DNA of 64,000 bases. Origin: a virus. The position numbers were made by a program, and so were the translations under genes. The first letter of the stretch is position 1, and each line of letters starts with the position of its first letter. Location: the IMG/VR virus record IMGVR_UViG_3300017963_005353, positions 1 to 64,000 of that record; one strand, 5' to 3'. Below the pieces are notes generated by a model, which saw only the letters and a list, made by a program, of their open reading frames with translations, was not told the origin of the DNA and did not search any database. Positions 408 through 22,989 of this stretch are shown one piece after another.

Positions 408-2660
408 ATGCCGATCACTATCGCTGATGCACCTGACACGCTTCCCAAGGGGGCAAAGACCATTTACGTCGGCGCGTTCAACGGGGCCTATTCCGGTGAG
501 TGCAAAGACGAGGGAAAGCGGCGTGATGAGTGCTCCGCTCGCATTGCCTGGGCAGCGGTCAAGAACAAATACAAACAGGTCGGCGACAAGTGGGTAGCCA
601 AGGCCGCCCACGTCCAGGTTGAGTTTTACATAGCCAAAGCGTCCCTCCAGGCCGATGGGACCATGCGCTGGCTGTGTGTGGCGTCCGACACGAACCCTGA
701 CAACCGCAGGGACAGGACCACGTTGACCCTGTTCCGAGACTGGATGGACAGGGTGGAGAACGATATACAGGTATCGTTTCTGCCCTCTCCCCGCAAGCCG
801 TTCCTGGGGCTGTCCCACTATCCAAGCCTGGATGGGTTTGGCGAGGCCGGCCTCACCGACCGCATGTACATCGACGGCGACCAGTTCAAAGCGGGCGGGT
901 TTTTCATCGACAACGCTTTGGGGCACGCTCTGTTCGATGCCATCCGGGACGAGCTTGCGGCCATCAAGCGCGGCGACCACCCGGACCTGCCGATCCGCAT
1001 CTCTGCCGCCTGGTGGGACATAGAGCACGCCCATGGCGATTTTCTGTTCCGTCGCTCCAGCCTGGACGACATTTGCCCTATGTGTGTCGAGGACACGAGC
1101 AAGACGTTTCTCAAGGGGCAGCTAGATCATTTTGCCGCCACACGGGTGCCGATCAACCCGCGCACGTCGGTGGTGGCACTGGAGGAAAGGTCTATGGCAA
1201 AAGTTACCCGTCACGACGACGCTGCCAGCATCGTTGACCCGGATCTTGCAGACGAACTGGAGCGACAGACGCAAGAACGACTGGAGCAGCGATCTGATGC
1301 CGATGCCGAGACGCCCGCAGCCCTGGTCATCAAAGCCGACGATGAGGGCGACCTGGTAGAGCTCGCCGGCGTCACCTGTGAGTGCCTGGAGTGTGGCAAG
1401 ACTGTCACGCTCAAGGAGGGGGAGCACTGCCCGGACACGAAATGCCCTGAGTGTGGGGGAGAGATGCGCCGCAAGGAAAGGCCGGGCGTGGGCCGGGCCG
1501 ATGAAGAGCAAGCCGTCACCAAGAAGAAAAAGAAAGACGATTGGCAACTGACAAAGAGTGACATTCGCTCACTGATCGCCTTGATCGACAAAGAACTCGC
1601 CCGCCGCAAGAAGGTCAAAGAGAAAAAGGCTTACGTCGAAATGTCCATGCAGCCGGTGAACGAGGACATGAGCCTAGGGAAACTCATCGAGGCCCTGTTC
1701 AATAGCTGCCCATCCCGCGCCGGCAAGACAAAAAGCACATGGATGGGCGACGTCAAGAGCTGGATCGGTTCTGCTGCCACAAAGTCCATCACCGGCTATC
1801 GCCGCCGCCTGGTGATGGTCGGAACCAAGATGGGCATGAAGTTTGGCAAGGCAGATGTCGAAATGGCAGACGAGTTTGTGGAGCAACAAACCGCTCCCGT
1901 CACTGATATGCCAGACACCTGGCGACCCTTCGGGGGAGCCACGTCCATCTCTGCCGCCGAAGCGTGGTTGGAAGCGCAAGAGAAGATGTTCCAAGTCTAT
2001 GATAGCTGGGGCATGTTCCGGGCCATCATGGAAAACATTTTGGATGACACAGACCTGACCGACAAACTGCCCGCCGTCCGTGAAGCGATCGCCGAGTTCG
2101 GCGACCGCGTGGAGACTATCAAGTCGGGGGCGGTTGACGCCTTTTTGGTCAGGGCCGTTGTCCAACAAGGAGAAGAAACCATGCCTGAGCAAAACAAGGA
2201 TCAGGTCCAAGACACCCAGGCGACCGAGCGGGTTGTCGCCGAGACGCCGGCCGCGCTCGACCCCGGGTCGGCCTTTTGGAGTGCCATTCAGGGCCTCACC
2301 GGCAACGTGACTCTATCGCGGGCTGACATGCTCAAGAGCGCACAAACCGCGCTCGAGACCCTGGCCTCTGCCGTCCAACAGCAGATCAACGCTGTGCGGC
2401 CGCCCGCTGTCGATGGTGAGGAAATGAAGGCCGCCGTCACCGCCGCCGTGGCCGAGGCGATGCGACCGTTGGGCGAGCAAGTGGCGTTGCTGCTTGCCAA
2501 GTCTCAAGCGGCTGCCCAGCCCGCGCCCGCTGTGCCGGTACAGCGCAGCCAGTCCGCACCGCAACAGGCGATCCAGGAAGTGGTGCCGGACACCGGCCTG
2601 ACCATTCCATCAAACAGCCTCCGGGCGTTGGCCCGCAGGTCTGTTGGTCTGCAAGACTGA
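408..2660 (+). CDS. ChaB-domain / prohead protease / Zn-ribbon / scaffold fusion protein
   Basis: N-terminal ChaB signature (LP..AKTIYVGAFN...ARIAWAAVKNKYKQ..DKW), a protease-like segment (CVASDTNPD...HYP...ISAAW...HFAATRVPINPRT), a CECLECG...CPDTKCPECG ribbon and an Ala/Gln/Pro-rich helical C-terminus. It lies directly upstream of the capsid gene. Confidence 0.72.
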   Translation: MPITIADAPDTLPKGAKTIYVGAFNGAYSGECKDEGKRRDECSARIAWAAVKNKYKQVGDKWVAKAAHVQVEFYIAKASLQADGTMRWLCVASDTNPDNRRDRTTLTLFRDWMDRVENDIQVSFLPSPRKPFLGLSHYPSLDGFGEAGLTDRMYIDGDQFKAGGFFIDNALGHALFDAIRDELAAIKRGDHPDLPIRISAAWWDIEHAHGDFLFRRSSLDDICPMCVEDTSKTFLKGQLDHFAATRVPINPRTSVVALEERSMAKVTRHDDAASIVDPDLADELERQTQERLEQRSDADAETPAALVIKADDEGDLVELAGVTCECLECGKTVTLKEGEHCPDTKCPECGGEMRRKERPGVGRADEEQAVTKKKKKDDWQLTKSDIRSLIALIDKELARRKKVKEKKAYVEMSMQPVNEDMSLGKLIEALFNSCPSRAGKTKSTWMGDVKSWIGSAATKSITGYRRRLVMVGTKMGMKFGKADVEMADEFVEQQTAPVTDMPDTWRPFGGATSISAAEAWLEAQEKMFQVYDSWGMFRAIMENILDDTDLTDKLPAVREAIAEFGDRVETIKSGAVDAFLVRAVVQQGEETMPEQNKDQVQDTQATERVVAETPAALDPGSAFWSAIQGLTGNVTLSRADMLKSAQTALETLASAVQQQINAVRPPAVDGEEMKAAVTAAVAEAMRPLGEQVALLLAKSQAAAQPAPAVPVQRSQSAPQQAIQEVVPDTGLTIPSNSLRALARRSVGLQD

Positions 2661-2764: not shown

Positions 2765-3991
2765 ATGCCTGCCCTTAAAACTCCACAGATTGTTCCGGGC
2801 GTTTCACCCGGCGAGCAGGTACTCGACATGCGCGACCCGACCGGGCGGTCCAGCTTCATGGCCGGCACGCCCCAACCCATGGCCGCGCGTGCGACCGATC
2901 CGGTCATCTCGCCCACCTACTCACAGCCGGCCGACTTTACCGCCCAATATCCCACGCCGCTTGACCCCACCGAGGTCATTGCGATGTGCGAGGAAGTGAC
3001 GCTGTTCCAGTTCATCCCTGAGCAGATGGGCTCACTGCAAGCCGAGCTCTGGCGCGAGCTCAACGAACTGGCTTTCTCGTCAGGCTCCACCTATATCGCC
3101 TTTGCCGATGGTGCCTGCCCCGAGGAGTACGAGCACGATGGCGACAACACGACCATCACACTCAAAAACCTGGGGGCCAAGAAAAGCCTGGGGATCAGCG
3201 ACATCATGCACTCCACCGCCGTGGCTGCCGCGAACTGGCACGGCATCAACCGCCTGGTCGGTGGTGCCCCAACGGGTGAAGGGATGCCGGGCGGGGCCGA
3301 CATGGGCACGTTCGTGCAGGAGAGTGTCGCCGGCCTCAAAGAGAAGGAAATGCGCCTGGGCATGAGCCTGGTCATCAACGGCTACGATCGTTTGCTGGCC
3401 GTGGGCAACGCCACGACCAATACCCTGGAGTTCGATGGCATCGAAAACCAGGTGACGAACGCCAATGGCAGCCACGTGGTCGTCAGCGGCGCATCTGGTA
3501 CCATCTCGGCCATCAGCTTCGACCGGTTCCTCACCGAATCGTGTGCCAAGCCAACGGTCGTCATGGGCCACCCGCAGGCCATCCAGGAGCTTCTGTCTGC
3601 CTATTTCCAGTTGGGCTTCCAGGGGTCCCAGGTCGTGAACTTTGCGACCGGCAACCGCATCACGCCGGGCTACAATTTCGCATCGTTCATCAACACCGCC
3701 GTGGGGCAGCTTCAGGTGGTCGCCGACAACAACTTCACGCGCACCGCATCTGGCTCCACGACCTTCCAGTCCGACATCTTTGCCCTACGCATGGTCCACA
3801 ACGGCGAGCCGCTGGTCTACCGCCGCACGCAGATCCCGCTCGCTTTCAAGGACCTGGTGCCCGGATGCACGGCCATCAGCTTTGAGATCTGGACCAAGAC
3901 CGCGCTGATCGTGAAATACCGCTGCGCTCACGGGCGGTACACCTCACTGTTCACCGGTCAGATCCAGACGACCTGCCCTGTCATCGGGTAG
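2765..3991 (+). CDS. Major capsid protein
   Basis: 408 aa from ATG 2765 with an AAGGAGG RBS. Position after the protease/scaffold, and a GN....LEFDGI motif common in HK97-fold capsids. Confidence 0.8.
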   Translation: MPALKTPQIVPGVSPGEQVLDMRDPTGRSSFMAGTPQPMAARATDPVISPTYSQPADFTAQYPTPLDPTEVIAMCEEVTLFQFIPEQMGSLQAELWRELNELAFSSGSTYIAFADGACPEEYEHDGDNTTITLKNLGAKKSLGISDIMHSTAVAAANWHGINRLVGGAPTGEGMPGGADMGTFVQESVAGLKEKEMRLGMSLVINGYDRLLAVGNATTNTLEFDGIENQVTNANGSHVVVSGASGTISAISFDRFLTESCAKPTVVMGHPQAIQELLSAYFQLGFQGSQVVNFATGNRITPGYNFASFINTAVGQLQVVADNNFTRTASGSTTFQSDIFALRMVHNGEPLVYRRTQIPLAFKDLVPGCTAISFEIWTKTALIVKYRCAHGRYTSLFTGQIQTTCPVIG

Positions 3992-4098: not shown

Positions 4099-4338
4099 AT
4101 GCCTGTCACCAACGAGAGCGGGGAAGTGGCCGTAATCTATAGAAACAACGTCCCAAGACTGGTGGACGGCAAGCACGTCTTTGCCGTCAAGCATGGCATT
4201 TCCCTTGCCTGGGTTCCAGAGGCGACCGCTGCCGCCCTGATCCGCCGCAGGTCAACGTGTCGGGGCTGTGGCAACAAAAAGCTGTTTGCCTTTGCCACCG
4301 AGGGCCAAGTCAGCCATTGGCTCTCCGGAGGGAGATGA
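4099..4338 (+). CDS. Small hypothetical protein with a CxxC motif (possible minor head protein)
   Basis: GGAGG RBS before ATG 4099, TCRGCG motif, first gene after the capsid. Confidence 0.6.
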   Translation: MPVTNESGEVAVIYRNNVPRLVDGKHVFAVKHGISLAWVPEATAAALIRRRSTCRGCGNKKLFAFATEGQVSHWLSGGR

Positions 4339-4341
4339 GTC

Positions 4342-5178
4342 ATGCGGATAGGCGTCACCGGTCCCCATGGGCGTTTAGGTTCTGAGTTGGTCCGCCAGGG
4401 TTGTGTGCCCATCGAGGCGGACGTTACGCATTTCTACGCGCTCAAGACTGCGGTTGAAGCCGCCGAGTGTGACGTGATCGTGCACTGCGCGGCCATGACC
4501 GACGTGGACGCCTGTGAGACAGACCCCTCGACCGCCGCCGCGATCAACACCGGGGGCGTTGCCCACCTCCTGCAAGCCCATCCCGGGCGCATCGTCTATC
4601 TCTCTACCGATTACATCTTCGACGGGGGCAGCCCCACTTTCACCCAAACACAGCCGGCCGGCCCCTATTCCGAGACGTGGCCCCCCAATCCCATCTCGGT
4701 CTACGGCTGGTCCAAGCTCGGTGGGGAAATCCTGATCCGCAACGCCCGCCGCCCGGGGTGTCTGACCGTTCGCACGACCGTGCTTTTTGACGGGCGGAGT
4801 GGGTGTTTCGTGGCGAAAGTGCTGGACAAGCTCATGCGCGATGAATACGTCTATGTTCCCGATGAGCTTTACGGGAGCCCAACCTACATTCCCCACCTGG
4901 CGACCGACATCCTCCTGGCGATAGAGCGCAACGTGACGGGCGTGCTCAACCTGGCCGGTGTGCACGTCATTTCTCGGTATGAGTTCGCCCGGAGGATCGC
5001 GGAGGCCGCCGATGTGCCGCTGACCCTGGTGAAGAGGGGCAAAACCCTGGGGGCCGCTCCCCGGCCCAAGCAAGCGGGCCTGACGATCAACAAGGCCACG
5101 CACCTGGGCTTTTTGCCCCGGGATCCGCTGGCCGTTTTACCGCAAATCATAGCACAAAGACACGGAGGCGAGACATGA
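4342..5178 (+). CDS. rfbD: dTDP-4-dehydrorhamnose reductase (RmlD/RfbD)-family extended SDR
   Basis: VTGPHGRLG, HCAAMTDVDACE, YLSTDYIFDG, PISVYGWSKLGGE, GSPTY and APRP motifs. Confidence 0.85.
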   Translation: MRIGVTGPHGRLGSELVRQGCVPIEADVTHFYALKTAVEAAECDVIVHCAAMTDVDACETDPSTAAAINTGGVAHLLQAHPGRIVYLSTDYIFDGGSPTFTQTQPAGPYSETWPPNPISVYGWSKLGGEILIRNARRPGCLTVRTTVLFDGRSGCFVAKVLDKLMRDEYVYVPDELYGSPTYIPHLATDILLAIERNVTGVLNLAGVHVISRYEFARRIAEAADVPLTLVKRGKTLGAAPRPKQAGLTINKATHLGFLPRDPLAVLPQIIAQRHGGET

Positions 5179-6368
5179 GAGAGACCTGGAAAGTGTGGAG
5201 GCTTGGAGATCCCATCACAGTTAATCGCATCGTGTGGGATCAGCGAGAGGTCGAAAATGTGCTGGATGTGTTTCAGTTGGACTGGTTTGGCCCGCGCACC
5301 TATGCGGAGATGGCAGAAACGTTCCTGGGCCGGCTTCACGATGACCGGTTTGCCCAGCTGCTCAATTCCGGTTCGTCGGCCCTATTCTTGGGCACACTCG
5401 CCCTGCAAAAGATGGGCCTGTGGAAACGGGGCGACAAGATTCTGACACCTGTTTGCACCTTCCCCTCCACGGCAAACCCCATCTGGCAGGCAGGCATGAT
5501 CCCTGTCTTTGTGGACGTGGAGGAAGGAACGTACAACATCGACGCTGAATTGGCGTTCGATGCCCTGGACGAGCACCCGGACATCGCCGGCGCCATCATT
5601 CCCCACCTGTTGGGCAACATCCCCAACATGCACGACCTGACGACCATGCTCGGGGACCGCCCGCTCATCGAGGACTGCTGCGACACGCTCCTGGGAGAAT
5701 ACGATGGGCAGTTGGTCGGCACTTTTGGGGACGCGGCGGCCTTTTCATTTTACGGGTCCCACCACGTCACCGCTGCCGGCGTGGGCGGGGCGTTGGTGTG
5801 TGCGGATCCGGACATGCACGAAATTGTCCACAGCATGGCCTTTTGGGGGCGCGATTTTGCCCCGACCGGAGAGCCTTACACCGATTTTCTCAACCGCTAT
5901 CGCTACCGGGAGATCGGGTTCGACATGCAGATGACCGAGATCCAGGCGGCCTTTCTGGTCGCTCAACTCGAGCGATTGCACCACATTGTCGAACTCAGGC
6001 ACCAACGGTTTCTGGAGCTCTTTGACGCCCTGATCGCCTATGACCATTTGCTGGTGCTGCCCAGGCAGCACGATGACGCGGAGCCCTCCTGGTTTGGGTT
6101 CCCGGTGCTGGTAAGGGAGGATGCGCCATTCGACCGGGAGGAGTTTGTGCGCTACCTGCTTGAAATGAAGGTGGAGATCCGCCCCCTGTTCGCCGGCAAT
6201 CTATTGAGGCAGCCTGCTTACAGGGACAGCCCCCATCTCCTTGTCGGGGATACGACCCAGGCAGACCGGTGCATGGAGCGGGCGTTTTTCCTGCCATCGT
6301 GGAACATGCCCCAGGACTGCATGGATCGCTTGATCGAGATAGTAGTGGGGTTTTTGGATGAGCAGTAG
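5175..6368 (+). CDS. DegT/DnrJ/EryC1/StrS family, RfbH/ColD-type NDP-4-keto-6-deoxysugar 3-dehydratase-like
   Basis: NSGSSA, FPSTANP, HLLGN, IEDCCD, SFYGSHHVT (His at the Schiff-base Lys position), WGRD, SWFGFP and RPLFAGN. Confidence 0.8.
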   Translation: MRETWKVWRLGDPITVNRIVWDQREVENVLDVFQLDWFGPRTYAEMAETFLGRLHDDRFAQLLNSGSSALFLGTLALQKMGLWKRGDKILTPVCTFPSTANPIWQAGMIPVFVDVEEGTYNIDAELAFDALDEHPDIAGAIIPHLLGNIPNMHDLTTMLGDRPLIEDCCDTLLGEYDGQLVGTFGDAAAFSFYGSHHVTAAGVGGALVCADPDMHEIVHSMAFWGRDFAPTGEPYTDFLNRYRYREIGFDMQMTEIQAAFLVAQLERLHHIVELRHQRFLELFDALIAYDHLLVLPRQHDDAEPSWFGFPVLVREDAPFDREEFVRYLLEMKVEIRPLFAGNLLRQPAYRDSPHLLVGDTTQADRCMERAFFLPSWNMPQDCMDRLIEIVVGFLDEQ

Positions 6369-6380
6369 GGAGAAAGAAAC

Positions 6381-7142
6381 ATGGGGCTTGTCTTAATTCC
6401 TGGGCAAGAGGCGACAATCAAGACCTCGGTGATCGTGCCGGTCTGGAACCGGGCCGATCTGACCATGGCCTGGCTCAACCGGCACTGGAGCCTGTACAGA
6501 GGCAGGCCCGACGTTGAGGTGGTGATCGTCAACAATGGGTCAACCGACACGACGCCAGCCATCCTGGTCCAATGGGGCAAAGTCTATGGTGACGCGCTCC
6601 AGGTGGTGACGCACGACGAAAACCGGGGATTCAGCGCGGGCAACAATGCCGGCGCAGCAGTCGCCAGAGGTTCGGTGCTTGTGTTCACCTCCAATGACGT
6701 GATTGTCAACGGTGATTACCTGGGACCGGTAGAGCAGCGGCTAAACGGGCAAGATGTTCTCCTGGGCGCACAGATATTGACCATCGACACGGGTTGGAAC
6801 ACGTTCCGGGGTGTCGAGGTTGAGACCGTCGCCGAGGGGCGAGACCCCAAGCGGGAGCCAGAGCCAACCGTCATTCCCTACCTGGCGGGGCACCTGGTCG
6901 CTGCCAACCGCTCGACGTGGGATCGCATAGGAGGATGGGACGAACGGTATAAACCGAGCGACTATGAGGACATCGACCTGTCCTATACGGCCATTCGGTT
7001 GGGTATCCCATTGGTCGCCATTGCCCTGCCCGTCAAGCATCTGTTTGGGCAGTCGGCGGGCCAACTACACGGAGGGCGTGAGGCCATCACGTTCCAGAGC
7101 CGGGCCAAGTTCATGGAGAAATGGGGGTTGTCAGAGCCATGA
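6381..7142 (+). CDS. Glycosyltransferase family 2
   Basis: SVIVPVWN, VNNGSTD, NRGFSAGNNAG, FTSND and GGWDERY...YEDIDLS. Confidence 0.88.
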   Translation: MGLVLIPGQEATIKTSVIVPVWNRADLTMAWLNRHWSLYRGRPDVEVVIVNNGSTDTTPAILVQWGKVYGDALQVVTHDENRGFSAGNNAGAAVARGSVLVFTSNDVIVNGDYLGPVEQRLNGQDVLLGAQILTIDTGWNTFRGVEVETVAEGRDPKREPEPTVIPYLAGHLVAANRSTWDRIGGWDERYKPSDYEDIDLSYTAIRLGIPLVAIALPVKHLFGQSAGQLHGGREAITFQSRAKFMEKWGLSEP

Positions 7143-7402
7143 GAATGGAGATACACAATAAAGTGAGACTGCGCCCATGTAGATGGAAATGGCACATTAG
7201 CCAACCCAATGTCGAGTGGGATTGTGGGGTCTTTCACCTGTTCTTTCCCTGGGAAGGCATTGTGGGAGCAGTGCTAGAAAATGGCAATGGGGAGGTTATC
7301 GTGGTACACGACATCGCCACTTCCCTAGCCTTACAATTCACCGATAACCTGGCCGGTGAGATATTCGATCTGGAAACCAGGTCAAGGAGTGAGAATGGAT
7401 AA
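7139..7402 (+). CDS. Hypothetical protein
   Basis: ATGA overlap with the upstream GT2 stop; fills the operon gap. Confidence 0.5.
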   Translation: MRMEIHNKVRLRPCRWKWHISQPNVEWDCGVFHLFFPWEGIVGAVLENGNGEVIVVHDIATSLALQFTDNLAGEIFDLETRSRSENG

Positions 7403-8234
7403 TTACTATCTCATGGGGCGAACCTACAAAGGCAAGCTGCGCGACATGACCTCTGGCATTGGCCCCCTGCTCCTGCTCATGGGGCTTTTTCTCCTGGCCG
7501 CCGCTCTGTCTAGTGTGCCGTGGCTCGCTCCCGATTGGGAGAACTTCTATCGCCCTGGGGCTCTGTCCGCCAGGCCCAACGACGTTTTTGGGAACTATGC
7601 CCCGCCCTGGACCTACCCGGTGCTGTGGCCCATCGCCGTCTTGGGCGATGGCCTGAGCAAGGGCGTGCTCACCCTGGCAACTGTTTTTGTATGCTGGCGG
7701 TTCATGGGTTCCTGGCGGCGGTTCGCCCTGTTGTGCCTGACCATGCCGTTCGTGGCGACGGTCGCCTTTGGGCAGATTGACACCCTTTCCCTGGTCGGGT
7801 TGATGGCGCCGGCCGACTTATCTCTGCTGTTCCTGACCATGAAGCCCCAGGGGGCGATACTGGCAGCACTCAAAGAGCGGTTGACAGTCCGCTCGGTCTG
7901 TATCCTGCTGATCCTGGTTGCAGTTTCGCTCCTCCTGTGGGGTTGGTGGCCGGCCAGTTTGCTGGCCCGTACAGACTGGAGTACAGACTGCTCACCCTGG
8001 CCCTATGGTATCCCCTTTGGCCTGGGCCTGCTGTATTGGCAGTGGAAACGGGGGTTTGACAGCGATTCGGCGTTGTGTGTGGCAACGCTCCTGCTGGTGC
8101 CATACTTTTTCTACACGTCCATGCTGCCGGCTGTGGCGGCAACTATCAAGGAAATGGACGACGATTGGCCCATGATGCTCCTGGTCGTAGGCGTAACCTG
8201 GCTGATGGTCATCTTTGCGGGGGTTGGGTTGTGA
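7395..8234 (+). CDS. Polytopic membrane glycosyltransferase, GT87/DUF2029-like (GT-C fold)
   Basis: About 8 hydrophobic segments; DW..FY, Y.PPW, GQID and LTMKPQ motifs typical of GT87; AAGGAG RBS before 7395. Confidence 0.6.
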   Translation: MDNYYLMGRTYKGKLRDMTSGIGPLLLLMGLFLLAAALSSVPWLAPDWENFYRPGALSARPNDVFGNYAPPWTYPVLWPIAVLGDGLSKGVLTLATVFVCWRFMGSWRRFALLCLTMPFVATVAFGQIDTLSLVGLMAPADLSLLFLTMKPQGAILAALKERLTVRSVCILLILVAVSLLLWGWWPASLLARTDWSTDCSPWPYGIPFGLGLLYWQWKRGFDSDSALCVATLLLVPYFFYTSMLPAVAATIKEMDDDWPMMLLVVGVTWLMVIFAGVGL

Positions 8235-8965
8235 GGGTGATCGTCCTGGCCCGGACGTTAAACGAAGAGCGAAACATTGCCCGGTTCTGCCGGTGCTATG
8301 CCCAGGCCGATGCCATCCTTGTGGCAGACGGGGGAAGCACCGACCGGACGGTGGAGATTGCTCGCCAATTTGAAAACGTGGAGGTTCGTCACTTTCGGGA
8401 AAGGACGCACTATCCCGGGGGCGTCATTTTCAACCCGGAGACGCAGCACATTAACTTTCTCATAGATTGGGCGGTGAGGGAGCAAAGCCCCGATTGGCTG
8501 GTCAACGATGACGTGGACTGCATACCGACTGCCGACCTACATCGTGACATGCTTGGGCTGCTCGCCGCTGCCCTGGCTCCTGTGGTTTGTGCTTATAGGC
8601 TGTATGTCTGGGGAGAGCGCATGTATCTGCCCCGGATGAGCTTGCAGGGGCAATCCTTGTGGGCGTGGCAACCCCGGCTCAAGTCCGACATCAGAGGGGA
8701 TGAAAGCCTGCCGGAAACCCAGTACGGATTCACCGGCATACCACCCGCCTACACCGATGGGCGGATCGACCTGGCGGCCCCGTTCTGCCTGTTGCATTAT
8801 TTTGCACCATCCGAAGCCGCCTATGCTGAGAGAATGGTACAATACGCTGCCAGGGGTACGCCCATCGTGCCCATCAGGGAGACCGAATATTGGCCGCCCG
8901 AACCTTTGCCCGTTTGGGCGGTTCCTCCGAAGATTGCAGAGGGGAGCCATGTCAGAGCAGGTTAA
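8231..8965 (+). CDS. Glycosyltransferase family 2
   Basis: GTG start overlapping the upstream stop; NEERNI, VADGGSTDRT, DDVD (DxD) and LLHY. Confidence 0.8.
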   Translation: MRVIVLARTLNEERNIARFCRCYAQADAILVADGGSTDRTVEIARQFENVEVRHFRERTHYPGGVIFNPETQHINFLIDWAVREQSPDWLVNDDVDCIPTADLHRDMLGLLAAALAPVVCAYRLYVWGERMYLPRMSLQGQSLWAWQPRLKSDIRGDESLPETQYGFTGIPPAYTDGRIDLAAPFCLLHYFAPSEAAYAERMVQYAARGTPIVPIRETEYWPPEPLPVWAVPPKIAEGSHVRAG

Positions 8966-9422
8966 AACGCTCGTCACCATACTGCGCCACCAGCGGATCG
9001 TCGCCGCCTACATGCGTCGGCTGGCCTATGCGCTCCTGGAGGTGGCGGAGGTCCACGACCTGTCAAAACTGAGCCTGGACGAGTTTGGCGGATTTGTTGA
9101 GATGAACCACGTTGCCAGGGAGCACAAATTCGGCTCAGAAGAATACTATGCTGCCCTGGAGAACAGGGACGACGTTGTGGGATTGCACTATCAACGCAAC
9201 CGCCACCACCCGGAGCACCACGACCGGGGCATTGATGACATGACCCTGGTGGACCTGGTGGAAATGGTCGCTGACTGGCAAGCGGCCAGCGACGTTTACG
9301 GGAAAGCCACGTTTGAAGAGGGGTTGAAGGTGCTGAGGGATCGGTTTGGGCTCACGTCCTGTCATCTGCACTTGATATGGCTGATTCATGACGTGTTCGT
9401 GGGGGAGACAGAGAGGCCATGA
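8949..9422 (+). CDS. Phage HD-like protein (DUF5662-like)
   Basis: HDLSKL...HYQRNRHHPEHH...MTLVDLVEMVADW motif. Confidence 0.7.
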   Translation: MSEQVKTLVTILRHQRIVAAYMRRLAYALLEVAEVHDLSKLSLDEFGGFVEMNHVAREHKFGSEEYYAALENRDDVVGLHYQRNRHHPEHHDRGIDDMTLVDLVEMVADWQAASDVYGKATFEEGLKVLRDRFGLTSCHLHLIWLIHDVFVGETERP

Positions 9423-10015
9423 GAGACTACAGGCACATCGACCGGTATTTGACCGAACTCCAGGCAGACGTCTACCCGCAGCCGCAAGACGACCAGACCC
9501 AGGGGCTCATCGCTCAACTGGCGAAACAATGGCTGCCACGGTTGCAGGGGCTCGACAGCATCCTTGACGTGGGCTGTGCCCAGGGACAGGCCATTCCCAT
9601 CCTGGAGAAATATTGTCCGAACGTCGTGGGGGCAACGCTCGGTACCGACGCCATGGTTGCCAGCCAACAGGGGCACACCGTCTACTACGCCGACATGTCC
9701 TTTCTCCCCTTTGGAGAGGGGGAGTTCAAGCTGCTCTGGTGCCGCCACGTGCTCGAGCACTCACCCATGCCGCTCATCACGCTCATGGAGTGGCACCGGG
9801 TCGCCCGCCAGTGGTGCATCTGTGTGGTGCCGACCATCGAGGCCCATGGCTACGGGGATGCCAGCGATCAGCACTACTATGTCCTCCACGAAAAGCAGTG
9901 GAAAAACTTGTTTCAACGAACCGGCTGGCACGTGCTATGGCAGGACTATTCCTATGGCGTCGAAATGCGCTGGCTCCTGGAGAAAAAGGAACGACCGAAA
10001 GGATCGCCCTCATGA
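9419..10015 (+). CDS. Class I SAM-dependent methyltransferase
   Basis: ILDVGCAQG, ADMSFLPF and RHVLEHSP. Confidence 0.85.
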   Translation: MRDYRHIDRYLTELQADVYPQPQDDQTQGLIAQLAKQWLPRLQGLDSILDVGCAQGQAIPILEKYCPNVVGATLGTDAMVASQQGHTVYYADMSFLPFGEGEFKLLWCRHVLEHSPMPLITLMEWHRVARQWCICVVPTIEAHGYGDASDQHYYVLHEKQWKNLFQRTGWHVLWQDYSYGVEMRWLLEKKERPKGSPS

Positions 10016-10473
10016 CCGACGTAAGGCTGACCGATATAAAGTGGATCGACCCTGGCGTGGCCCAGGCCCTTGACGGGGCCGGTGTGACTGTTGAGACCCT
10101 GGCCGCCATGACCGCAAACGAGCTTCTGGGGAAATTCCCGTTTGTGGGAACGATCAACGCCTGGCTCCTGACCGACGAGGCCCGGTATGTCATGGGACAG
10201 GTGGAGGCAGGGCTGTGGTCGCCACAAGAGAAACTCGACCTGGAAATGACCCTGAAAGAGCTTGAGGAAATAGAGCGACAAGAGGCCATGGAACGAATAC
10301 GCCCGCGCATGAAATGGCCTCCCGATACCCCTGCCCAGGTACAGACCAGCGGCAAATCGGTCCGTGTGGAGCGGATAGAGGCTCAAAGGGCACGCCAGGC
10401 CCAACTGGACGCCGAGCGGGAACGGTTGGTCAAGCTGATCCTGGATCAAGACGATGAGGAGGATCCAGAATGA
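10012..10473 (+). CDS. Hypothetical protein with an N-terminal helix-hairpin-helix-like motif
   Basis: LTDIKWIDPGVAQAL..AGVTVETLA resembles HhH repeats; ATGA-coupled at both ends. Confidence 0.5.
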   Translation: MTDVRLTDIKWIDPGVAQALDGAGVTVETLAAMTANELLGKFPFVGTINAWLLTDEARYVMGQVEAGLWSPQEKLDLEMTLKELEEIERQEAMERIRPRMKWPPDTPAQVQTSGKSVRVERIEAQRARQAQLDAERERLVKLILDQDDEEDPE

Positions 10474-11381
10474 AGGTCGTGCTGTCGGGCATTTACTACC
10501 CGTTTGCCATTCTCCGGTATTTTGAACTGGCCTTGCGTCGGCGTGACGACGTGGAGTTGATCACGGTCGGTCCCTGGACCGGGGCGTGGATACCGTGGAA
10601 CGGGGGCATGAATTTACCCATGCAGTACGCCGGCCGGCCCGACATGGCGTTTCCCAACACGCAAACCTTTCGCAACCTGCCTGTATCGTTCGTGGAGGCC
10701 AAGCTGGCCGCCGCGAATCTTGGGCCGGTTGACCTGTGGCTCCAGGTAGACGCCGGTTTCTACCTGGATGGGCATCCATCGCATGGCAAAAACGTCATCG
10801 TCGCTACTGATCCGCATGTGCTGAACTATGACCGGCAACGGACACTGGCAGATGTTTTCTACTGTATGCAGCAGACCTATGCCAAACCGGGGGATGTGTA
10901 TCTGCCCTACGCCCACGACCCAATTCATCACGCTCCCCCTGACGAACCGGTGGACAAGGAGTTTGACTGCTGCCTGCTCGGGTTGCACTACCCGCAGCGG
11001 GTAGAGCTCGTCAGGCAGTTGAGGGTACGGAACATCTCAGTCAAGTTCGCTTTAGGTCCGATATATGAGGAGGCTCGTCAGTTTTACAACGCTGCCCACA
11101 TCGGTCTCAACTGGTCGAGCCTCCTTGATTTGAACGCCCGCGTGTTCGAACTCCTGGGGTTTGGCGTGCTGGCGGTGGTCAACCGGGTGCCTGACCTGGG
11201 CCGGTTTTTCAAGGAGGACGAGCACCTGGTCGTGTTTGATGACATGAAGGAAGCGGTTGAAAAGGTGGTGTACTATCTTGACCGCGCCGACGAACGAGAG
11301 CGGATCGCCGCCCAGGGGCACAGGGCCGTTTCGGGACACACGTGGGACGCTCGTGTGGCGACGATCTTGGAGGGGGCATAA
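10470..11381 (+). CDS. CgeB-like glycosyltransferase (GT-B fold)
   Basis: YLPYAHDP, YPQR, IGLN...LNARVFE and ERERIAAQG...HTWDARV. Confidence 0.82.
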   Translation: MKVVLSGIYYPFAILRYFELALRRRDDVELITVGPWTGAWIPWNGGMNLPMQYAGRPDMAFPNTQTFRNLPVSFVEAKLAAANLGPVDLWLQVDAGFYLDGHPSHGKNVIVATDPHVLNYDRQRTLADVFYCMQQTYAKPGDVYLPYAHDPIHHAPPDEPVDKEFDCCLLGLHYPQRVELVRQLRVRNISVKFALGPIYEEARQFYNAAHIGLNWSSLLDLNARVFELLGFGVLAVVNRVPDLGRFFKEDEHLVVFDDMKEAVEKVVYYLDRADERERIAAQGHRAVSGHTWDARVATILEGA

Positions 11382-11384
11382 GGT

Positions 11385-11780
11385 ATGAGCAAGCGGATAA
11401 ACAGGGCGCCAGCCGTCGTCAAGCACCTGGGGGAGCCCAAAGAGGCCCGGACTCTAAAGGGCACGATCGTGCACCGGCAAGACAAGCTGTGGGTTGATCA
11501 GTGGGGGCGGTTTGTGCCCTGTGCTCCCTATGACGATCACTTTCTCTATGAGAGCCCGGACAAGACACCGGGCAGCCCGACGTTCATGTGCACCTGTGGA
11601 AGTGCGGCCATCATCGTGGGAGCGGGCAAGGCAGAGATGTTCGTGTGCATGATGCACGTCACCACAGGCAAACACACGACGAGCTTGGTCAATATCAAAG
11701 ACTTTCCAGACATTGGGGGGCAGACCATCGGAGAGCCTGGGCCGGGCATTGACCTGCCAGGAGGAAAGCTGAAACTATGA
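11385..11780 (+). CDS. Hypothetical protein, putative Zn-binding (CxC...CxxH...H)
   Basis: Fills the operon; CTCGS...CMMH....KH. Confidence 0.55.
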   Translation: MSKRINRAPAVVKHLGEPKEARTLKGTIVHRQDKLWVDQWGRFVPCAPYDDHFLYESPDKTPGSPTFMCTCGSAAIIVGAGKAEMFVCMMHVTTGKHTTSLVNIKDFPDIGGQTIGEPGPGIDLPGGKLKL

Positions 11781-12061
11781 GCACTGGTCCTGGACGACCA
11801 GTACAGGGCGACACAAACGCCACCGAACAAGTTGACGCCACTGGTGCTCAGGTCCATGAGATTTCCATTGACGCCAAACACCTGGTTACACTCACCTTTC
11901 CGGAGGGTACGTCATCTAAGCGGGCCAGCCACACGATTCAATCCATGCGCCGATTGCTGGACGAATGGTGGACAAACCGCCAGCCCTTTTTGGTTGTGGG
12001 ACTTCTGGATGGTCTGGAACTCCGGTTTCACAGAAAAAAGACCGAAGAGGATGCCGGGTGA
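11777..12061 (+). CDS. Hypothetical protein
   Basis: Translationally coupled (ATGA/GTGA) on both sides. Confidence 0.55.
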   Translation: MSTGPGRPVQGDTNATEQVDATGAQVHEISIDAKHLVTLTFPEGTSSKRASHTIQSMRRLLDEWWTNRQPFLVVGLLDGLELRFHRKKTEEDAG

Positions 12062-13128
12062 AAATTGACCTGTTGTGCAACGATGGATCTCCCCTAGGTG
12101 TTGTTCCCGGGGACATATATGGGCGGGGCGTTGGCGGGGCAGAATTGTCGATGCTCACCTGGGCGACGACCATGGCCGCCAGGGGACATCAGGTTCGCGT
12201 GTTCAACGATCCCAAACCGCCCGGCGTCCATGATGGGGTAGAGTTCCTCCCCAGGAGCGCGTTTGAGCCAAGAGACGGCACGCGGGATGCTTTCGTGATC
12301 TACCGTTCCCCCAATGCCCACACGAAAGCGGGGCAGGCAGCGATCAAGGTACACTGGTCTATGGACCAGTTTACGGTCGGAAACTACTCGCTGGACATTG
12401 TACCACATGTGGATACGATTGTATGCATTTCACCCTACCATGTGCAGGACTACCGGAACCGGTATCACCCGCCAGTGGAGAAAATGGGCTACCTGGACCT
12501 GGGGGTCAAACTGGCCGACTATGACCAGAAGGTGGAGAAAGTGCATGGGTTGTGTATCTTCTGCTCGATGCCCGACCGGGGGCTGCGCCATTTGCACCCG
12601 CTGTGGGCCAGGATTCTTGAGCAAGAGCCGGGCGCAACGCTGGTCATCACAGGCGATTATACCCTGTGGGGAGCAAAGAATCCGGGCAACCATCAGCACC
12701 GGCTCCAATGGTTGCACACGCCCGGCGTCAAGTTCGTGGGGAATATCCCACGGGAGGAACTGGTCAAGGCCCAATTGGAGGCCCAGGTTCATGCCTATCC
12801 TTGCGTCTATAAGGAATTGTTCTGCATCGCCGCCGCCGAGTGCCAAGTGGCCGGGGCGGTGCCCATCACGACGCCGACGGGAGCCCTGGCGACGACCAAT
12901 GCGTTCGGGTTTCTCCTGCCCGGCAACATTCTGGCCTCTCGTTGGCAGCACATGTTCGTCAAAGCGGTGATCGCTGCCATGCGAATGACCAATGCCGAGC
13001 GGGAGACGATGCGGGCACAGGCCCGCGCCAGGTTCGATTGGAATGTCATTTGCGGGCAGTGGGAAACCCTGTTGGAGACGGGCCAGTTCCCGGAAGGACA
13101 CCGTGGGGATCAGTTGGGGAAACCGTAA
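12058..13128 (+). CDS. Glycosyltransferase family 4 (GT-B)
   Basis: GVGGAE, SMPDRGL and YPCVYKELFCIAAAECQVAG..P (EX7E). Confidence 0.85.
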   Translation: MKIDLLCNDGSPLGVVPGDIYGRGVGGAELSMLTWATTMAARGHQVRVFNDPKPPGVHDGVEFLPRSAFEPRDGTRDAFVIYRSPNAHTKAGQAAIKVHWSMDQFTVGNYSLDIVPHVDTIVCISPYHVQDYRNRYHPPVEKMGYLDLGVKLADYDQKVEKVHGLCIFCSMPDRGLRHLHPLWARILEQEPGATLVITGDYTLWGAKNPGNHQHRLQWLHTPGVKFVGNIPREELVKAQLEAQVHAYPCVYKELFCIAAAECQVAGAVPITTPTGALATTNAFGFLLPGNILASRWQHMFVKAVIAAMRMTNAERETMRAQARARFDWNVICGQWETLLETGQFPEGHRGDQLGKP

Positions 13129-13454
13129 TGACCGCTTGAGGGCACGGGCGGGATGGCACTTCTGAGGCTTGAAAGAAACGTGAGTCGATGTTGCGTGCTG
13201 AACTGCCTGAGCGGGGAGGACATGATAGCGTAGCGCACGCAAAGCAGGTGCTTGCAGGCGGCCTTGCCGATGGCGAGCACCGCGAAAGAGCGGCTCTTGA
13301 TGTTGGCCGCCCCGTTCATCATGACGCCGGAGATGGGCTTTAGCACCAAGGGCAGGCCATAGAACCGCATCCCGCAAACGGGGCATTGGACGTGGAGGTC
13401 CTGGACTCGGAAAATGGTTTGATCGTCCATGGTGAAGGGGCTCACTGGAAACAT
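13110..13454 (-). CDS. Small antisense protein with CPVCG motif, probably leaderless
   Basis: ATG 13454 lies 6 nt downstream of the -10 box of a consensus promoter and fills the only gap in the + strand operon. Confidence 0.5.
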   Translation of the reverse strand: MFPVSPFTMDDQTIFRVQDLHVQCPVCGMRFYGLPLVLKPISGVMMNGAANIKSRSFAVLAIGKAACKHLLCVRYAIMSSPLRQFSTQHRLTFLSSLRSAIPPVPSSGHYGFPN

Positions 13455-13460
13455 GCTTAA

Positions 13461-13489
13461 ATTGTACCACATTCGATATATTCTGTCAA
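13461..13489 (-). promoter_or_regulatory. Sigma70 promoter, antisense to the late operon
   Basis: TTGACA-17 nt-TACAAT with an extended -10 TG. Confidence 0.75.
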
Positions 13490-13498
13490 GGAAAACAC

Positions 13499-14677
13499 AT
13501 GACTATAGTTTATGTTTCCGATTTTGACCTGCGCGGCTCAGGTTATATGAACATAGCGGTCTCCATGTGCACCGGCCTCGTCGAGCAACATGGGCGGGAC
13601 GTGATCGCCCTGGGGTTTGGGTATGACGGGCGAGAGCACCATCACCCGTTCAAGATCGTGCCCAGCAAGCCCCAGCTTGTGCCAGACATGGTACGCTTGT
13701 TGGGACAGCAAGAGGTGGACATCGAGGCCATCGTGGTGGCCCTGGATATACCCTTGCAGGAAGCTCTCATGAGAAAGGTACAGGTGCCGGGTGAAATCCC
13801 CTACATCGGCCTGTTCCCGGTGGAGGGGCCACCTGTCACCATGTCGTGGGCCATGCAACTCGCCAGGATGGATCAAGCCCTTGTCATGAGCCGGTTTGGA
13901 CAAAAGGCGCTCGCCGACGCTGGTGTACAGGCAACCTATGTGCCCATCGGGGTCAACTGTGCCCAATGGCGACCGCCAGTAGAGAACGAAAGGATTATGA
14001 TCCGGGAGGGCCTGGGAATCCCCGACGACGTGTTCATGGTGCTGACCGTGGCCGACAACCAGGAGCGGAAAAACCTGTCTGTTGCCATGGAGATATTCGC
14101 CCATTTCTCCCTGGACGTTGAAGAAACCGACCAGTATGGGCATATTTTGAGCGCAACGCCAAAGCGACCCACACAATGGCACCTGGTCACACGGCCAGAA
14201 TCGCCCATCGGGTTCAAGCTCAACGACCTGGCGATGGACATGCAGGTCATGGATCGCCTGGTGCTTTACAACCGGGGGATGCCGTTCAAGGCCCTGTGGT
14301 CCCTGTTTGTGGCGGCTGATGCTTTCCTGCTGACCAGCAAGGCCGAGGGGCTTGCCATGCCAGTGTTGGAGGCCATGGCCTGCCGGCTGCCTGTGGTGGG
14401 CACAGACACGTGTGCCATACACGAGCACCTCACCTCCGGGCGGGGGTTGCTCATCAAGCCGGGCTATCTGATGATCGACCCGTGGGGCAACTCTCAAAGG
14501 GCTCTGGCCGACAGGGATGCGGGCGTGAGAGCCCTGGAGCGGTTGGCAGACATGGATACGGACAAGCGAGAGGCCATGCTTGACAAAGCCCAGGGCTATG
14601 TGCAAAAACGAACCTGGGACAAAGCAGTCAATGTGTTGAACGAGGCCATAGATCAGGCGGTGAGGAGCAAACAGTGA
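13499..14677 (+). CDS. Glycosyltransferase family 4
   Basis: SGY, TVADNQERKN and ADAFLLTSKAEGLAMPVLEAMACRLPVV. Confidence 0.88.
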   Translation: MTIVYVSDFDLRGSGYMNIAVSMCTGLVEQHGRDVIALGFGYDGREHHHPFKIVPSKPQLVPDMVRLLGQQEVDIEAIVVALDIPLQEALMRKVQVPGEIPYIGLFPVEGPPVTMSWAMQLARMDQALVMSRFGQKALADAGVQATYVPIGVNCAQWRPPVENERIMIREGLGIPDDVFMVLTVADNQERKNLSVAMEIFAHFSLDVEETDQYGHILSATPKRPTQWHLVTRPESPIGFKLNDLAMDMQVMDRLVLYNRGMPFKALWSLFVAADAFLLTSKAEGLAMPVLEAMACRLPVVGTDTCAIHEHLTSGRGLLIKPGYLMIDPWGNSQRALADRDAGVRALERLADMDTDKREAMLDKAQGYVQKRTWDKAVNVLNEAIDQAVRSKQ

Positions 14678-15576
14678 GTCGGAAAAGGAAAAAGGGTAAA
14701 CGCCCCAGGAAACCACGACAGCAGGCCGGGCGGGTTCGACAGGACACCATGCTCGATGTGGTGATCCCCGTCTATGGCCGGCCCGATATGCTCGGCCAAT
14801 GCCTGGCGGCCCTGGCGGCGACGGCCGGCGACCTGTCCTATTCCCTGTTCGTCGTGGACGACAAGGGACCCGATCAAGAGGCGTTGCAAAAAATCTATGC
14901 CGCGCTACCCCCTGACGCCTGGCTGTTACGCAATGCCCAAAACATGGGCTTTCCCTACACTGCCAACAGGGGGGCCGAACAGGGCAGGAGCGAGTTTATT
15001 GTGTTCCTGTCCACGGACATCGTGTTGCAAGAGGGGTGTCTGCAAGCGATGATAGGCGAGATGTTGGAGAACCCAAAAACAGGTGTCGTCGGGGCAAAGC
15101 TGCTTTTCCCCGAAGAGAGCGACGACCCGGCCCGGCCCGTGGGCAAGATCCAGCACGCGGGCCTGTGTGTCAACATTCAGGGCAACCTGGCCCATGCCAA
15201 CATAGGATGGAGCCCTGACCATCTCAAGGTCAACCAGCGCCGGGTGCTTCAGGCCGTGACCGGGGGGCTCCTGATGACCCGCCGTGAGACCTGGCAGCGC
15301 GTAGCTAAATACTACAGGCAGATTGACGGGGACCCGACCCGAGGGGGTTTCAACCTGGTCTATGGCAAGGGCACCTATGAGGATGTGGAATACTGCATCG
15401 CCGCCAGGGGAAATGGGTATGACGTGGTGTACGTTCCCCAGGCTGTGGCAACGCATCACGTGGGGGCATCGGTCAAGGGCTCTGAGACAGGGGGGTTTGC
15501 CTTGAATCGCAACGCCACGATCTTTGCCGCCCGGTGCGGCCACATGCTGCATTGGGACATGTGGAGGTTTTGCTGA
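14674..15576 (+). CDS. Glycosyltransferase family 2
   Basis: DVVIPVYG, VVDD, NMGFPYTANRG, FLSTD, IQHAG, AVTGG and YEDVEYC. Confidence 0.88.
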   Translation: MSRKRKKGKRPRKPRQQAGRVRQDTMLDVVIPVYGRPDMLGQCLAALAATAGDLSYSLFVVDDKGPDQEALQKIYAALPPDAWLLRNAQNMGFPYTANRGAEQGRSEFIVFLSTDIVLQEGCLQAMIGEMLENPKTGVVGAKLLFPEESDDPARPVGKIQHAGLCVNIQGNLAHANIGWSPDHLKVNQRRVLQAVTGGLLMTRRETWQRVAKYYRQIDGDPTRGGFNLVYGKGTYEDVEYCIAARGNGYDVVYVPQAVATHHVGASVKGSETGGFALNRNATIFAARCGHMLHWDMWRFC

Positions 15577-16298
15577 TGAGCGCTTTGCACATTATCACAA
15601 CGCCGAGCATCCTTACCGATGCCATATTCACTCAATACGGGGGTCAAACGGGTACGTCTACAGCCGCCCAACGCCGGGCCGCCTACTGTATTGCGGAAGG
15701 GGCAGCGGTGGACGAGATCGGCACGTTCCTATCGCCGACAACCTTCACAGGCACGTTTCAATGGCCTCCCCAAGGGCAGTTCTACAAACTGCCTCACGAC
15801 CAGGTAACAGCCATCACCAGCTTGTACAGCATCCATGAGGCCGGGTGTGAGTGCGCCGATACCGTGGTTGAATTGGAGGGGTGCGCCTGGATCGACGACA
15901 CAGACAATGGAATCATCGACGTGCGAGAGGTGGGCAACACGGCCAAGGCTGCGTGCTCTGCCTGCTGCTCTTGTGCTGGCTCCCCATGGGGCTATGGCGT
16001 GCCCTACCAGTTTCGCGTGGTCTACCAGGCCGGCCTGCCCACAGAGGCCGCCAGTGACCCGCGCCTACTCATGGGACTGACCGAGTTTGCCGACCTTGCC
16101 CTGGAGCAAATCATTGATCCAAGCGGGGCAGAGGGTGGGCCGGGTGATCCCGGCGTGCAGGAGTTCTCCTCCCAGGGATACAGCGAGAAACGGACGAAAC
16201 TGAAAAGCACTGCCATGGGAAGTTCCGCTCGGGCGAACTATGCCGCAAAACTGCTGCGGTCCTTCTCTCGCCATGGGGCGCTCAAGTTAGGATGGTGA
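15576..16298 (+). CDS. Head-tail connector/adaptor protein (Cys-rich)
   Basis: First gene of the head-tail block; VVYQAG...LM motif typical of gp6-like adaptors. Confidence 0.55.
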   Translation: MSALHIITTPSILTDAIFTQYGGQTGTSTAAQRRAAYCIAEGAAVDEIGTFLSPTTFTGTFQWPPQGQFYKLPHDQVTAITSLYSIHEAGCECADTVVELEGCAWIDDTDNGIIDVREVGNTAKAACSACCSCAGSPWGYGVPYQFRVVYQAGLPTEAASDPRLLMGLTEFADLALEQIIDPSGAEGGPGDPGVQEFSSQGYSEKRTKLKSTAMGSSARANYAAKLLRSFSRHGALKLGW

Positions 16299-22624: not shown

Positions 22625-22989
22625 GCGGAACCTACAAATTGGACGGCGAGTTTTTCCCGGTCAACCCTATTGCCAAACGCTGGCGGCGTGAGGACGTGGG
22701 AAGCAGCGGAGAGGCGGAAACCATCTACTCCGGGTTTTGGCAAATCGAGCTTGATTTTCCCATGCTGGAAATGGAGGATGAGGCTGATTGGTTCTATGAC
22801 AAATGGATCGCTGGCGGGTTGCATGAGGCCCAATTGCCCCATCCCCGAGATGGCACGCTGACCGGCTTCACGTCGGTGAATCTGAAGTCCTGGGAGTTTG
22901 AGTTCACCGACGTGGATGCCGATGCCTGGGCAGATGGGCCGCGCATGGTCTTGTCGCATATCAACATGGGAGCTACCGGGAACGTCTGA
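22621..22989 (+). CDS. Distal tail-like protein
   Basis: 122 aa immediately after the tape measure. Confidence 0.5.
   Translation: MSGTYKLDGEFFPVNPIAKRWRREDVGSSGEAETIYSGFWQIELDFPMLEMEDEADWFYDKWIAGGLHEAQLPHPRDGTLTGFTSVNLKSWEFEFTDVDADAWADGPRMVLSHINMGATGNV

Follow-up and report, generated by a model that had tools for sequence, protein, structure and literature searches.

A glycosylation gene island between the capsid and head–tail adaptor genes of an uncultured sediment phage lineage: a candidate system for virion decoration

To our knowledge, phage-encoded glycosylation of the virion has been shown only in a few mycobacteriophages, where it occupies two to four genes. In these phages, the capsid and the tail tube are reported to be glycosylated by the phages' own glycosyltransferases (GTs) (PMC12363180, PMC12619734, citing Freeman et al. 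2023), and the cases covered include Che8 gp108–110, Corndog gp35–38, and Myrna (PMC12363180, PMC12619734, PMC11600133, PMC11256854). Corndog gp35–38 are a methyltransferase and three GTs (PMC11600133); the Corndog record has the portal (gp34) on one side of them and the capsid protease (gp39) on the other. Giant viruses, i.e., chlorovirus PBCV-1 with Vp54 and Mimivirus with its fibrils, use their own cytoplasmic GTs and nucleotide-sugar enzymes to build unusual complex glycans on particle proteins (PMC9614988, PMC4691112). In Bacillus subtilis, CgeB is proposed to prime O-glycosylation at Thr112 of the hexameric spore-crust protein CgeA, with other GTs extending the chain; the activity of CgeB itself is weakly shown (PMC13577073). 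Here, we analyze an 11.5 kb island of sugar-related genes, positions 4099–15576 of a 64,000-nucleotide stretch (the window) that comprises bases 1–64000 of an 83,525 bp phage genome from sediment metagenomes, IMG/VR record IMGVR_UViG_3300017963_005353. The island is, with a probability of roughly 0.55, a late-expressed cytoplasmic glycosylation system for the phage's own virion proteins.

The island shares features with each of these systems. As in the mycobacteriophages, soluble phage GTs are combined with a methyltransferase, and the Corndog set likewise lies in a head module. As in the giant viruses, virus-encoded GTs stand beside enzymes that modify nucleotide sugars. A profile of the island's GT4b, the single sequence of which matched nothing among solved structures, matches BshA, PimB, and WaaG and, weakly but over the full length, the chlorovirus GT B736L (E 2e-4). 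Unlike the giant viruses, which have eukaryotic hosts and a double-jelly-roll capsid, the phage has no nucleotidyltransferase of its own for these sugars, and there is no close homology. CgeB and the hallmark GT of the island share a Pfam family, PF13524; the phage enzyme is about as long (303 vs. 317 residues), and its gene, too, has a small protein gene next to it. In the CgeB system, a proteinaceous shell is decorated in the cytoplasm and the chain is extended by other GTs, and by analogy the same may be proposed for the phage. The systems differ in that the Pfam match of the phage enzyme spans just residues 199–301, and its small neighbor is unrelated to CgeA as far as tested.

The genome carries 123 bp direct terminal repeats and has a CheckV completeness of 100%. 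Zero matches were found when 20 kb of the phage was compared by megablast with 50,697 isolate phage records, and zero again when the same records were searched by tblastn with the CgeB-like GT, with its small Cys/His neighbor, and with the capsid protein. A single co-directional array on the plus strand runs from the terminase and portal genes (78.6–83.1 kb) across the genome end and on to ~33.2 kb of the window. The array encodes, as follows, a ChaB-domain scaffold or protease candidate, the capsid protein, the island, the adaptor, an HK97 gp10-like protein, the tail terminator, the tape measure, and the large tail proteins.

The island comprises 17 plus-strand open reading frames (ORFs), with best start codons chosen. 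Family or subfamily matches name the enzymes and the DUF5662 ORF; the rest are a polytopic membrane protein and six ORFs that are small or unassigned. The initial annotation, made from the letters alone, had named an RmlD-like and an RfbH-like gene, three GT2s, two GT4s, a CgeB-like GT, and a methyltransferase, and Pfam and NCBIfam confirm each of these in place. Its description of the genes as mostly translationally coupled also holds: of 17 junctions, 12 overlap by 1–17 nt, three are gaps of at most 12 nt, and two are larger (107 and 370 nt). The GC content of the island is that of its flanks, and terminator-like sites are not in excess (12 observed vs. 16.4 expected).

That the island is wedged between capsid and head–tail genes, as the same annotation had it, is borne out by both flanks. 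The first sequence call for the capsid protein was weak (phrog_212, E 5e-4), and its profile matched nothing among PDB sequences. Across the family, 8 of 23 members match phrog_212, "major head protein", and families other than major-head ones were not matched. An AlphaFold2 (AF2) model from a shallow alignment, in which every row was at least 64% identical, reached a mean confidence (pLDDT) of only 30; with divergent homologues from a 1.8-billion-protein library, the pLDDT rose to 70.7. Foldseek assigns this model, at a probability of 1.0 and E ~1e-11, to the HK97 fold, with the capsids of HK97, T5, SPO1, and D3 and encapsulins as matches. The best start codon is the ATG at 2765, preceded by AAGGAGG, which corrects the first reading of this gene. 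On the right, the ATG of the adaptor gene, the product of which matches phrog_442, overlaps the stop codon of the last island gene, GT2c, by 1 nt.

The position of the island is kept in relatives. More than 1,500 homologues make up the capsid family in metagenomes, and none of them is from an isolate. We compared 55 IMG/VR loci with capsid relatives (50–74% identity), of which 36 have at least 6 kb 3′ of the capsid gene. In 31 of these 36, homologues of GT2a and the CgeB-like GT lie directly 3′ of the capsid gene; the adaptor follows the capsid gene at a distance of 13.9–18.3 kb in four relatives, vs. 11.6 kb here. Of the 31 island-bearing loci, 27 have the small Cys/His gene next after that of the CgeB-like GT. 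Other island genes are more variable: the RmlD-like gene is found in 25 loci, the 3-dehydratase gene in 17, the genes for GT4a and the methyltransferase in 15 each, that for GT2b in 14, and that for GT2c also in L008, L033, L048, and L049. The GT-C-like membrane protein and the 153-residue protein occur only in the closest relative, L004, and the DUF5662 gene is present in L042 and L044; by this distribution, the three are accessory. Among 143 ORFs of 13 loci, Pfam recognized mostly sugar enzymes, with PF13524 in 13 ORFs (the number of loci), GT2 in 17, sugar enzymes of the short-chain dehydrogenase/reductase (SDR) type in ~22, DegT in eight, and NTP_transferase in four.

The CgeB-like GT is conserved at the level of a structural protein. 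Its median identity is 44% vs. 39% for the portal protein; in all 10 loci compared, the GT is the more conserved of the two, and its identity rises with that of the capsid protein (r = 0.61). The contigs that carry its 757 homologues match those of the capsid hits in size, the gene co-occurs with the capsid gene on contigs, and PF13524 is carried by all 120 of the homologues listed. Judged by these comparisons, the lineage has kept the island at this position and did not acquire it recently; it is shown to be part of the core that this large group of uncultured phages inherits vertically. As nearly all sampled relatives carry it at the capsid gene, the phages probably put a complex glycan on their own virions.

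There are exceptions to the standard layout. In L021 and L022, the CgeB-like GT gene lies ~11 kb 3′ of the capsid gene, and in L018 and L052, GT2 or GT1 genes lie ~4–17 kb 3′ of it. In the two relatives of the former kind, a gene for a 1572-residue protein with a glyoxalase-like segment and other large ORFs (L021:11317–16035) separate the capsid gene from the sugar island, an insertion that shifts the island ~9 kb 3′.

The enzymes of the island point to a deoxysugar. The RmlD-like reductase scores 163 bits against Pfam RmlD_sub_bind and 168 bits against TIGR01214, under the 224-bit equivalog cut-off, and matches dTDP-4-dehydrorhamnose reductases in the PDB at E 1e-23. The gene that overlaps it, 5175–6368, had been called RfbH-like. 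Its best NCBIfam subfamily is indeed RfbH (NF011936), at 284.7 bits and so under the 423-bit cut-off, and its best PDB match, at 228 bits, is E1 (3BCX), a CDP-6-deoxy-L-threo-D-glycero-4-hexulose 3-dehydrase, with ColD at 131 bits. It shares with E1/RfbH (3BCX) and ColD (2GMS) the DegT fold and a His in place of the catalytic Schiff-base Lys: its "SHH" aligns with "AHH" of 3BCX and with "AKH" of the H220K mutant 3BB8. Unlike E1, which is the closest by sequence, it lacks, after WGRD, the cysteine loop that holds the [2Fe-2S] cluster in E1, a deletion shared with ColD, and no E3 reductase was seen. Because His replaces Lys and the cluster-binding cysteine loop is deleted, the product is, on these residues, a 3-dehydratase of the ColD-like, cluster-free type and no true RfbH. 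Together with the RmlD-like reductase, it should yield a 3,6-dideoxyhexose from a nucleoside diphosphate (NDP)-4-keto-6-deoxyhexose.

The pathway is less complete than the initial annotation supposed. No sugar-1-phosphate nucleotidyltransferase of the NTP_transferase family is found in the genome; its only cytidylyltransferase (44655–45395, CTP_transf_3) belongs to a CMP-sugar cassette. Nor is a 4,6-dehydratase recognizable in the genome, where the search found just the RmlD-like, GDP-mannose 3,5-epimerase-like, and SDR genes. It follows that the activated precursors, the NDP-4-keto-6-deoxyhexose among them, must come from the host; the islands of some relatives encode NTP_transferase and dehydratase-type SDR genes. 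The idea of phage-made deoxysugars is supported by the 3-dehydratase and the 4-reductase, and "near self-sufficient" was an overstatement for a genome without a nucleotidyltransferase, a 4,6-dehydratase, a priming enzyme, or a flippase. Sugar-related genes total ~28 kb (4.1–15.6, 30.9–33.2, and 36.1–50.4 kb), which is 44% of the window and a third of the genome; the third had earlier been ascribed to the window.

The genome encodes about nine GTs, where some ten had been counted: six over Pfam cut-offs, all within the co-directional structural array, one by structure only, and two sub-threshold ones elsewhere. The CgeB-like GT is well over the cut-off of its family (25 bits). The one recognized by structure, the membrane protein at 7395–8234, had been described as GT87-like. 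It has no Pfam match at E ≤ 0.01, GT87 (PF09594) included, but its 6–7 transmembrane segments and the predicted structure, with TM-scores of 0.6–0.73 to GT87, DUF2029, MptA, and PMT clusters in the Atlas, are a lead towards a GT-C-like fold; at 279 residues, it is short for a GT-C enzyme.

A reading in which the island glycosylates virion proteins is favored because its head-to-neck position is fixed and its conservation is on a par with that of structural genes. It is also favored because the core island enzymes have no transmembrane segments and the genome encodes no export machinery. That is, six-frame genome searches with positive controls found no lipid-carrier priming enzyme (PF02397 Bac_transf, PF00953 WecA-type) and no Wzx flippase (PF01943), and no protein of the genome has ten or more transmembrane segments, as a large polytopic transporter or polymerase would. 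There is therefore no encoded route for a polymer to the cell surface. The precedent of the mycobacteriophages, with the head-module GTs of Corndog, argues in the same direction. The capsid or tail glycan put forward in the initial annotation is thus supported by late-array position, matching GC content, lineage conservation, the presence of deoxysugar enzymes, lack of export machinery, and Corndog, and it fares less well with the GT-C-like protein, which fits the host envelope better.

The proposed mechanism is as follows. A host-supplied NDP-4-keto-6-deoxyhexose would be converted to a 3,6-dideoxyhexose by the cluster-free 3-dehydratase and the RmlD-like reductase, and further donors would come from the host, from the GDP-sugar genes (30.9–33.2 kb), and from the CMP-sugar cassette (44.7–50.4 kb). 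A soluble GT would place the first sugar on Ser or Thr of an assembled or assembling virion protein. The acceptor would be the capsid protein, possibly along with a neck, tail, or small accessory protein. The CgeB-like enzyme is the best candidate for this first transfer, since its namesake is proposed to prime the O-glycosylation of CgeA. GT2a, GT2b, GT4a, GT4b, and GT2c would then extend the glycan and the methyltransferase would cap it. The differing gene content among relatives would give each phage a distinct glycan, and the accessory pair of a GT2 and the GT-C-like membrane protein may be a separate sub-module modifying the host envelope.

Several observations weigh against virion glycosylation. 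The genome behind L056 (G008), which is complete, has no CgeB-like GT and just one unlinked GT2; the island is therefore dispensable for building this capsid. The PF13524 match is limited to the C-terminal third of the CgeB-like GT, which has no sequence relative among solved structures, its profile reaching only E 0.1–0.2. Homology to the Corndog set is not clear: the sole match, between Corndog gp37 and GT2a, has 22% identity and E 7e-5 in a small database, and a BLASTP search with gp38 found no match among the proteins of this genome. No RNA runs are among the sequencing runs that hold phage sequence. A candidate sequon was tried and rejected. The motif [S/T]-G-[S/T] occurs 31 times in virion proteins vs. 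11 expected, mostly in two large tail proteins, and two conserved capsid motifs, S-G-S and S-G-T, persist in L018 and L056, relatives without an adjacent island, because of which the capsid motifs look structural. Finally, the GT-C-like membrane protein is of a kind that acts outside the cytoplasm, at the outward face of the membrane and with lipid-linked donors. As modeled, it fits host-envelope modification better than virion modification, and with its GT2 it may form a Gtr-like module, lodged in the island, that acts on the host envelope.

An extension of this last point is that the island as a whole mainly remodels the host envelope during infection. Soluble GTs would act on host lipid-linked intermediates, and the GT2/GT-C pair would add a sugar outside the membrane, as in phage Gtr systems, thereby blocking superinfection or the sticking of progeny to debris. 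Phage GTs are known to modify the surface glycans of their hosts (Gtr systems, TarP), and the GT-C (GT87/MptA/PMT)-like gene is flanked by two GT2 genes; GT2–GT87 fusions are found in bacteria, and the nearest Atlas clusters of the membrane protein are from cellular genomes, mostly Chloroflexota. The pair resembles GtrA/GtrB/GtrC in that a GT2 adjoins a GT-C-like polytopic membrane protein, but no GtrA-like flippase was recognized, and the pair sits in a late structural operon and is accessory in the lineage. We consider this reading unlikely for the island, as the GT-C-like gene is restricted to this phage and its closest relative whereas the soluble core is lineage-wide, and as the genome is without a priming enzyme, flippase, or polymerase. 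Conversion genes are usually single accessory genes near lysogeny modules. Neither the fixed position between capsid and adaptor genes nor conservation at the level of structural genes would be expected of them, and no tyrosine integrase was found in this phage.

Two other products of the island have to be weighed against virion glycosylation. The glycan could be part of a soluble or lipid-bound glycoconjugate that is not on virion proteins, such as a packaged or secreted oligosaccharide or a glycolipid, or it could be carried by a small dedicated protein (4099–4338 or 11385–11780), perhaps in the virion. The latter idea draws on the regular placement of the small Cys/His gene after that of the CgeB-like GT, on the invariant Cys and His residues of its product, and on CgeA, CgeB's proposed substrate, which is also small, dedicated, and encoded adjacent (PMC13577073); that no capsid sequon tracks the island suits either version. 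The small island proteins have an unremarkable Ser/Thr content and no [ST]G[ST] motif, however, and the location of the island among structural genes still suggests the particle, so that a product of this kind seems rather improbable. Far less credible is that the GTs hypermodify phage DNA by glycosylating hydroxymethylated bases against restriction. DNA-glycosylating phage GTs are well known (bioRxiv 10.1101/2023.12.21.572611; PMC13326640), and the genome has an unusual SNF2/IbrA/IbrB block. Yet no thymidylate-synthase-like hydroxymethylase was found, nor a TET/JBP match, in a search the control of which was uninformative; the genes are located among those for the head rather than those for replication, and deoxysugar and multi-GT chains of such size are atypical of DNA modification.

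The candidate acceptors and small proteins show the following. The small Cys/His protein family ranges from 98 to 138 residues, with invariant G26, H52, F53, C69, C71, C88, and H97, of which the Cys and His residues form a candidate metal site. It matches no known family or fold, and an Atlas search was without a credible relative. A predicted complex of this protein with the CgeB-like GT scored 0.00, which carries no weight either way. The two large tail proteins (22989–29020, plus strand) hold 8 and 11 [S/T]-G-[S/T] motifs vs. ~3 expected from composition; this excess may reflect composition or structural repeats rather than a sequon. The H..HD..D pattern of the DUF5662 protein was seen by eye only, not from a model, and its single sequence has no relative among solved structures in the PDB.

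Table 1. Positions in the window of the island genes, their flanks, and the sugar genes at the end of the late array.
Feature	Coordinates	Strand	Basis or remarks
ChaB-domain protein, probable scaffold/protease	408–2660	+	Pfam ChaB E 1.6e-10; weak match to phrog_3017, head maturation protease
Major capsid protein, HK97 fold (left flank)	2765–3991	+	AF2 and Foldseek; AAGGAGG ribosome-binding site
Small ORF, 79 residues, no assigned function	4099–4338	+	GGAGG before ATG; homologues 3′ of the capsid gene in 14 related loci
RmlD-like NDP-4-keto-sugar reductase	4342–5178	+	PF04321 (RmlD_sub_bind) E 1.3e-47
E1/ColD-like pyridoxamine phosphate (PMP)-dependent NDP-4-keto-6-deoxyhexose 3-dehydratase, without Fe-S loop	5175–6368	+	DegT family E 3e-61
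GT2a, core GT of the lineage	6381–7142	+	PF00535 66 bits
Small ORF, 87 residues, no assigned function	7139–7402	+	Overlapping start/stop codons; no tblastn match in related loci
Polytopic membrane protein, GT-C (GT87/DUF2029/PMT)-like by predicted structure, accessory	7395–8234	+	6–7 transmembrane segments
GT2b	8231–8965	+	PF00535 30 bits vs. 23.3-bit cut-off
DUF5662 protein	8949–9422	+	PF18907 E 6.6e-29, 101 bits
S-adenosylmethionine-dependent methyltransferase	9419–10015	+	Methyltransf_11/23
Protein of 153 residues, no assigned function	10012–10473	+	No family match; only in L004
CgeB-like GT (PF13524), hallmark core GT	10470–11381	+	89.4 bits, residues 199–301
Small conserved Cys/His protein, directly 3′ of CgeB-like GT	11385–11780	+	No known family
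Small ORF, 94 residues, no assigned function	11777–12061	+	AGGAGG before ATG; no family matches
GT4a (GT-B, group 1)	12058–13128	+	PF00534 33.5 bits
Antisense ORF, 120 residues from first ATG at 13472, 106 from internal ATG near 13430	13110–13472	−	Own promoter
GT4b (GT-B, group 1)	13499–14677	+	PF00534 52.5 bits; weak TPR match
GT2c, final island gene before the adaptor	14674–15576	+	PF00535 58 bits
Head–tail adaptor (right flank)	15576–16298	+	phrog_442 "head-tail adaptor" E 5e-5
NDP-sugar 6-dehydrogenase, then GDP-mannose 3,5-epimerase-like gene, end of late array	30867–33184	+	UDPG_MGDP_dh domains; 298 bits to 2C59

Around and within the island, a few features deserve mention (Table 1). 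The ChaB-domain gene is kept 5′ of the capsid gene in relatives. The antisense ORF sits in the sole sizeable internal gap (13129–13498, 370 bp) and opposes the late operon. Its sigma-70-like promoter at 13489–13461, TTGACA-17-TACAAT with a TG, has 11 of 12 matches, and its product has a CPVCG motif; it is conserved in none of the 55 related loci. At the end of the array, the GDP-mannose 3,5-epimerase-like gene (32201–33184, plus strand) overlaps the stop codon of the NDP-sugar 6-dehydrogenase gene, its product matching GDP-mannose 3′,5′-epimerase 2C59; a longer ORF over it on the minus strand, 31925–33019, is probably spurious.

Elsewhere in the genome, a minus-strand block of lower GC content (0.49–0.50) at 51637–55717 of the window encodes a ParB-like protein, a PAPS-reductase/DUF3440 (IbrA-like) protein, and an SNF2 helicase, and may be a DNA-modification or anti-defence module. 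Five clustered membrane-protein genes at 56851–60445 (plus strand), one of them with a C-terminal winged helix-turn-helix and all without a family match, may form a lysis or membrane-remodelling cassette. Beyond the window, at 68638–69684 of the genome (G000; L061:4739–5785), the minus strand encodes a glycoside hydrolase of the Glyco_hydro_cc family with an N-terminal hydrophobic segment, which could be a lysin or a glycan-degrading enzyme. No tRNAs were found in the genome. As for the host, the labels of metagenome-assembled genomes holding capsid matches (Anaerolineae, Woesearchaeota, Bathyarchaeia, Brocadiales) were rejected, being on short contigs, mutually inconsistent, and probably binning errors. 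A close relative of the RfbH-like protein, sought in prokaryote genomes for host inference, was not found; the Atlas clusters of the GT-C-like protein give a weak hint of Chloroflexota.

A more specific version of virion glycosylation can be put forward tentatively. In a very abundant lineage of uncultured sediment phages, the capsid could bear a glycan coat, perhaps with a 3,6-dideoxyhexose, GDP-derived L-sugars, and a CMP-activated acidic sugar, primed by a CgeB-like protein O-glycosyltransferase that co-evolves with the capsid. The variable part of the island would then be a virion counterpart of an O-antigen locus, giving each phage its "serotype". If so, particle glycosylation in this large lineage of environmental phages would be ancient, would belong to its core traits, and would have diversified strongly, with 10–20 kb of genome spent on it. 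Our view of phage particle surfaces would have to be revised with respect to stability, adsorption to sediment, host recognition, and escape from grazers and defences. Soluble protein-directed GTs would also be of use in glyco-engineering, and the capsid protein and the CgeB-like GT are a testable pair.

It remains to set the island beside the one kind of phage virion glycosylation that has been described. The mycobacteriophage sets have two to four genes, whereas the island, as read from gene content, spans 11.5 kb, with seven GTs and deoxysugar enzymes placed between the capsid and adaptor genes. Moreover, the host here, as far as can be told, is not an actinobacterium. Relative to known phage virion glycosylation, the island would be a much larger, non-homologous, and lineage-wide version in uncultured sediment phages.

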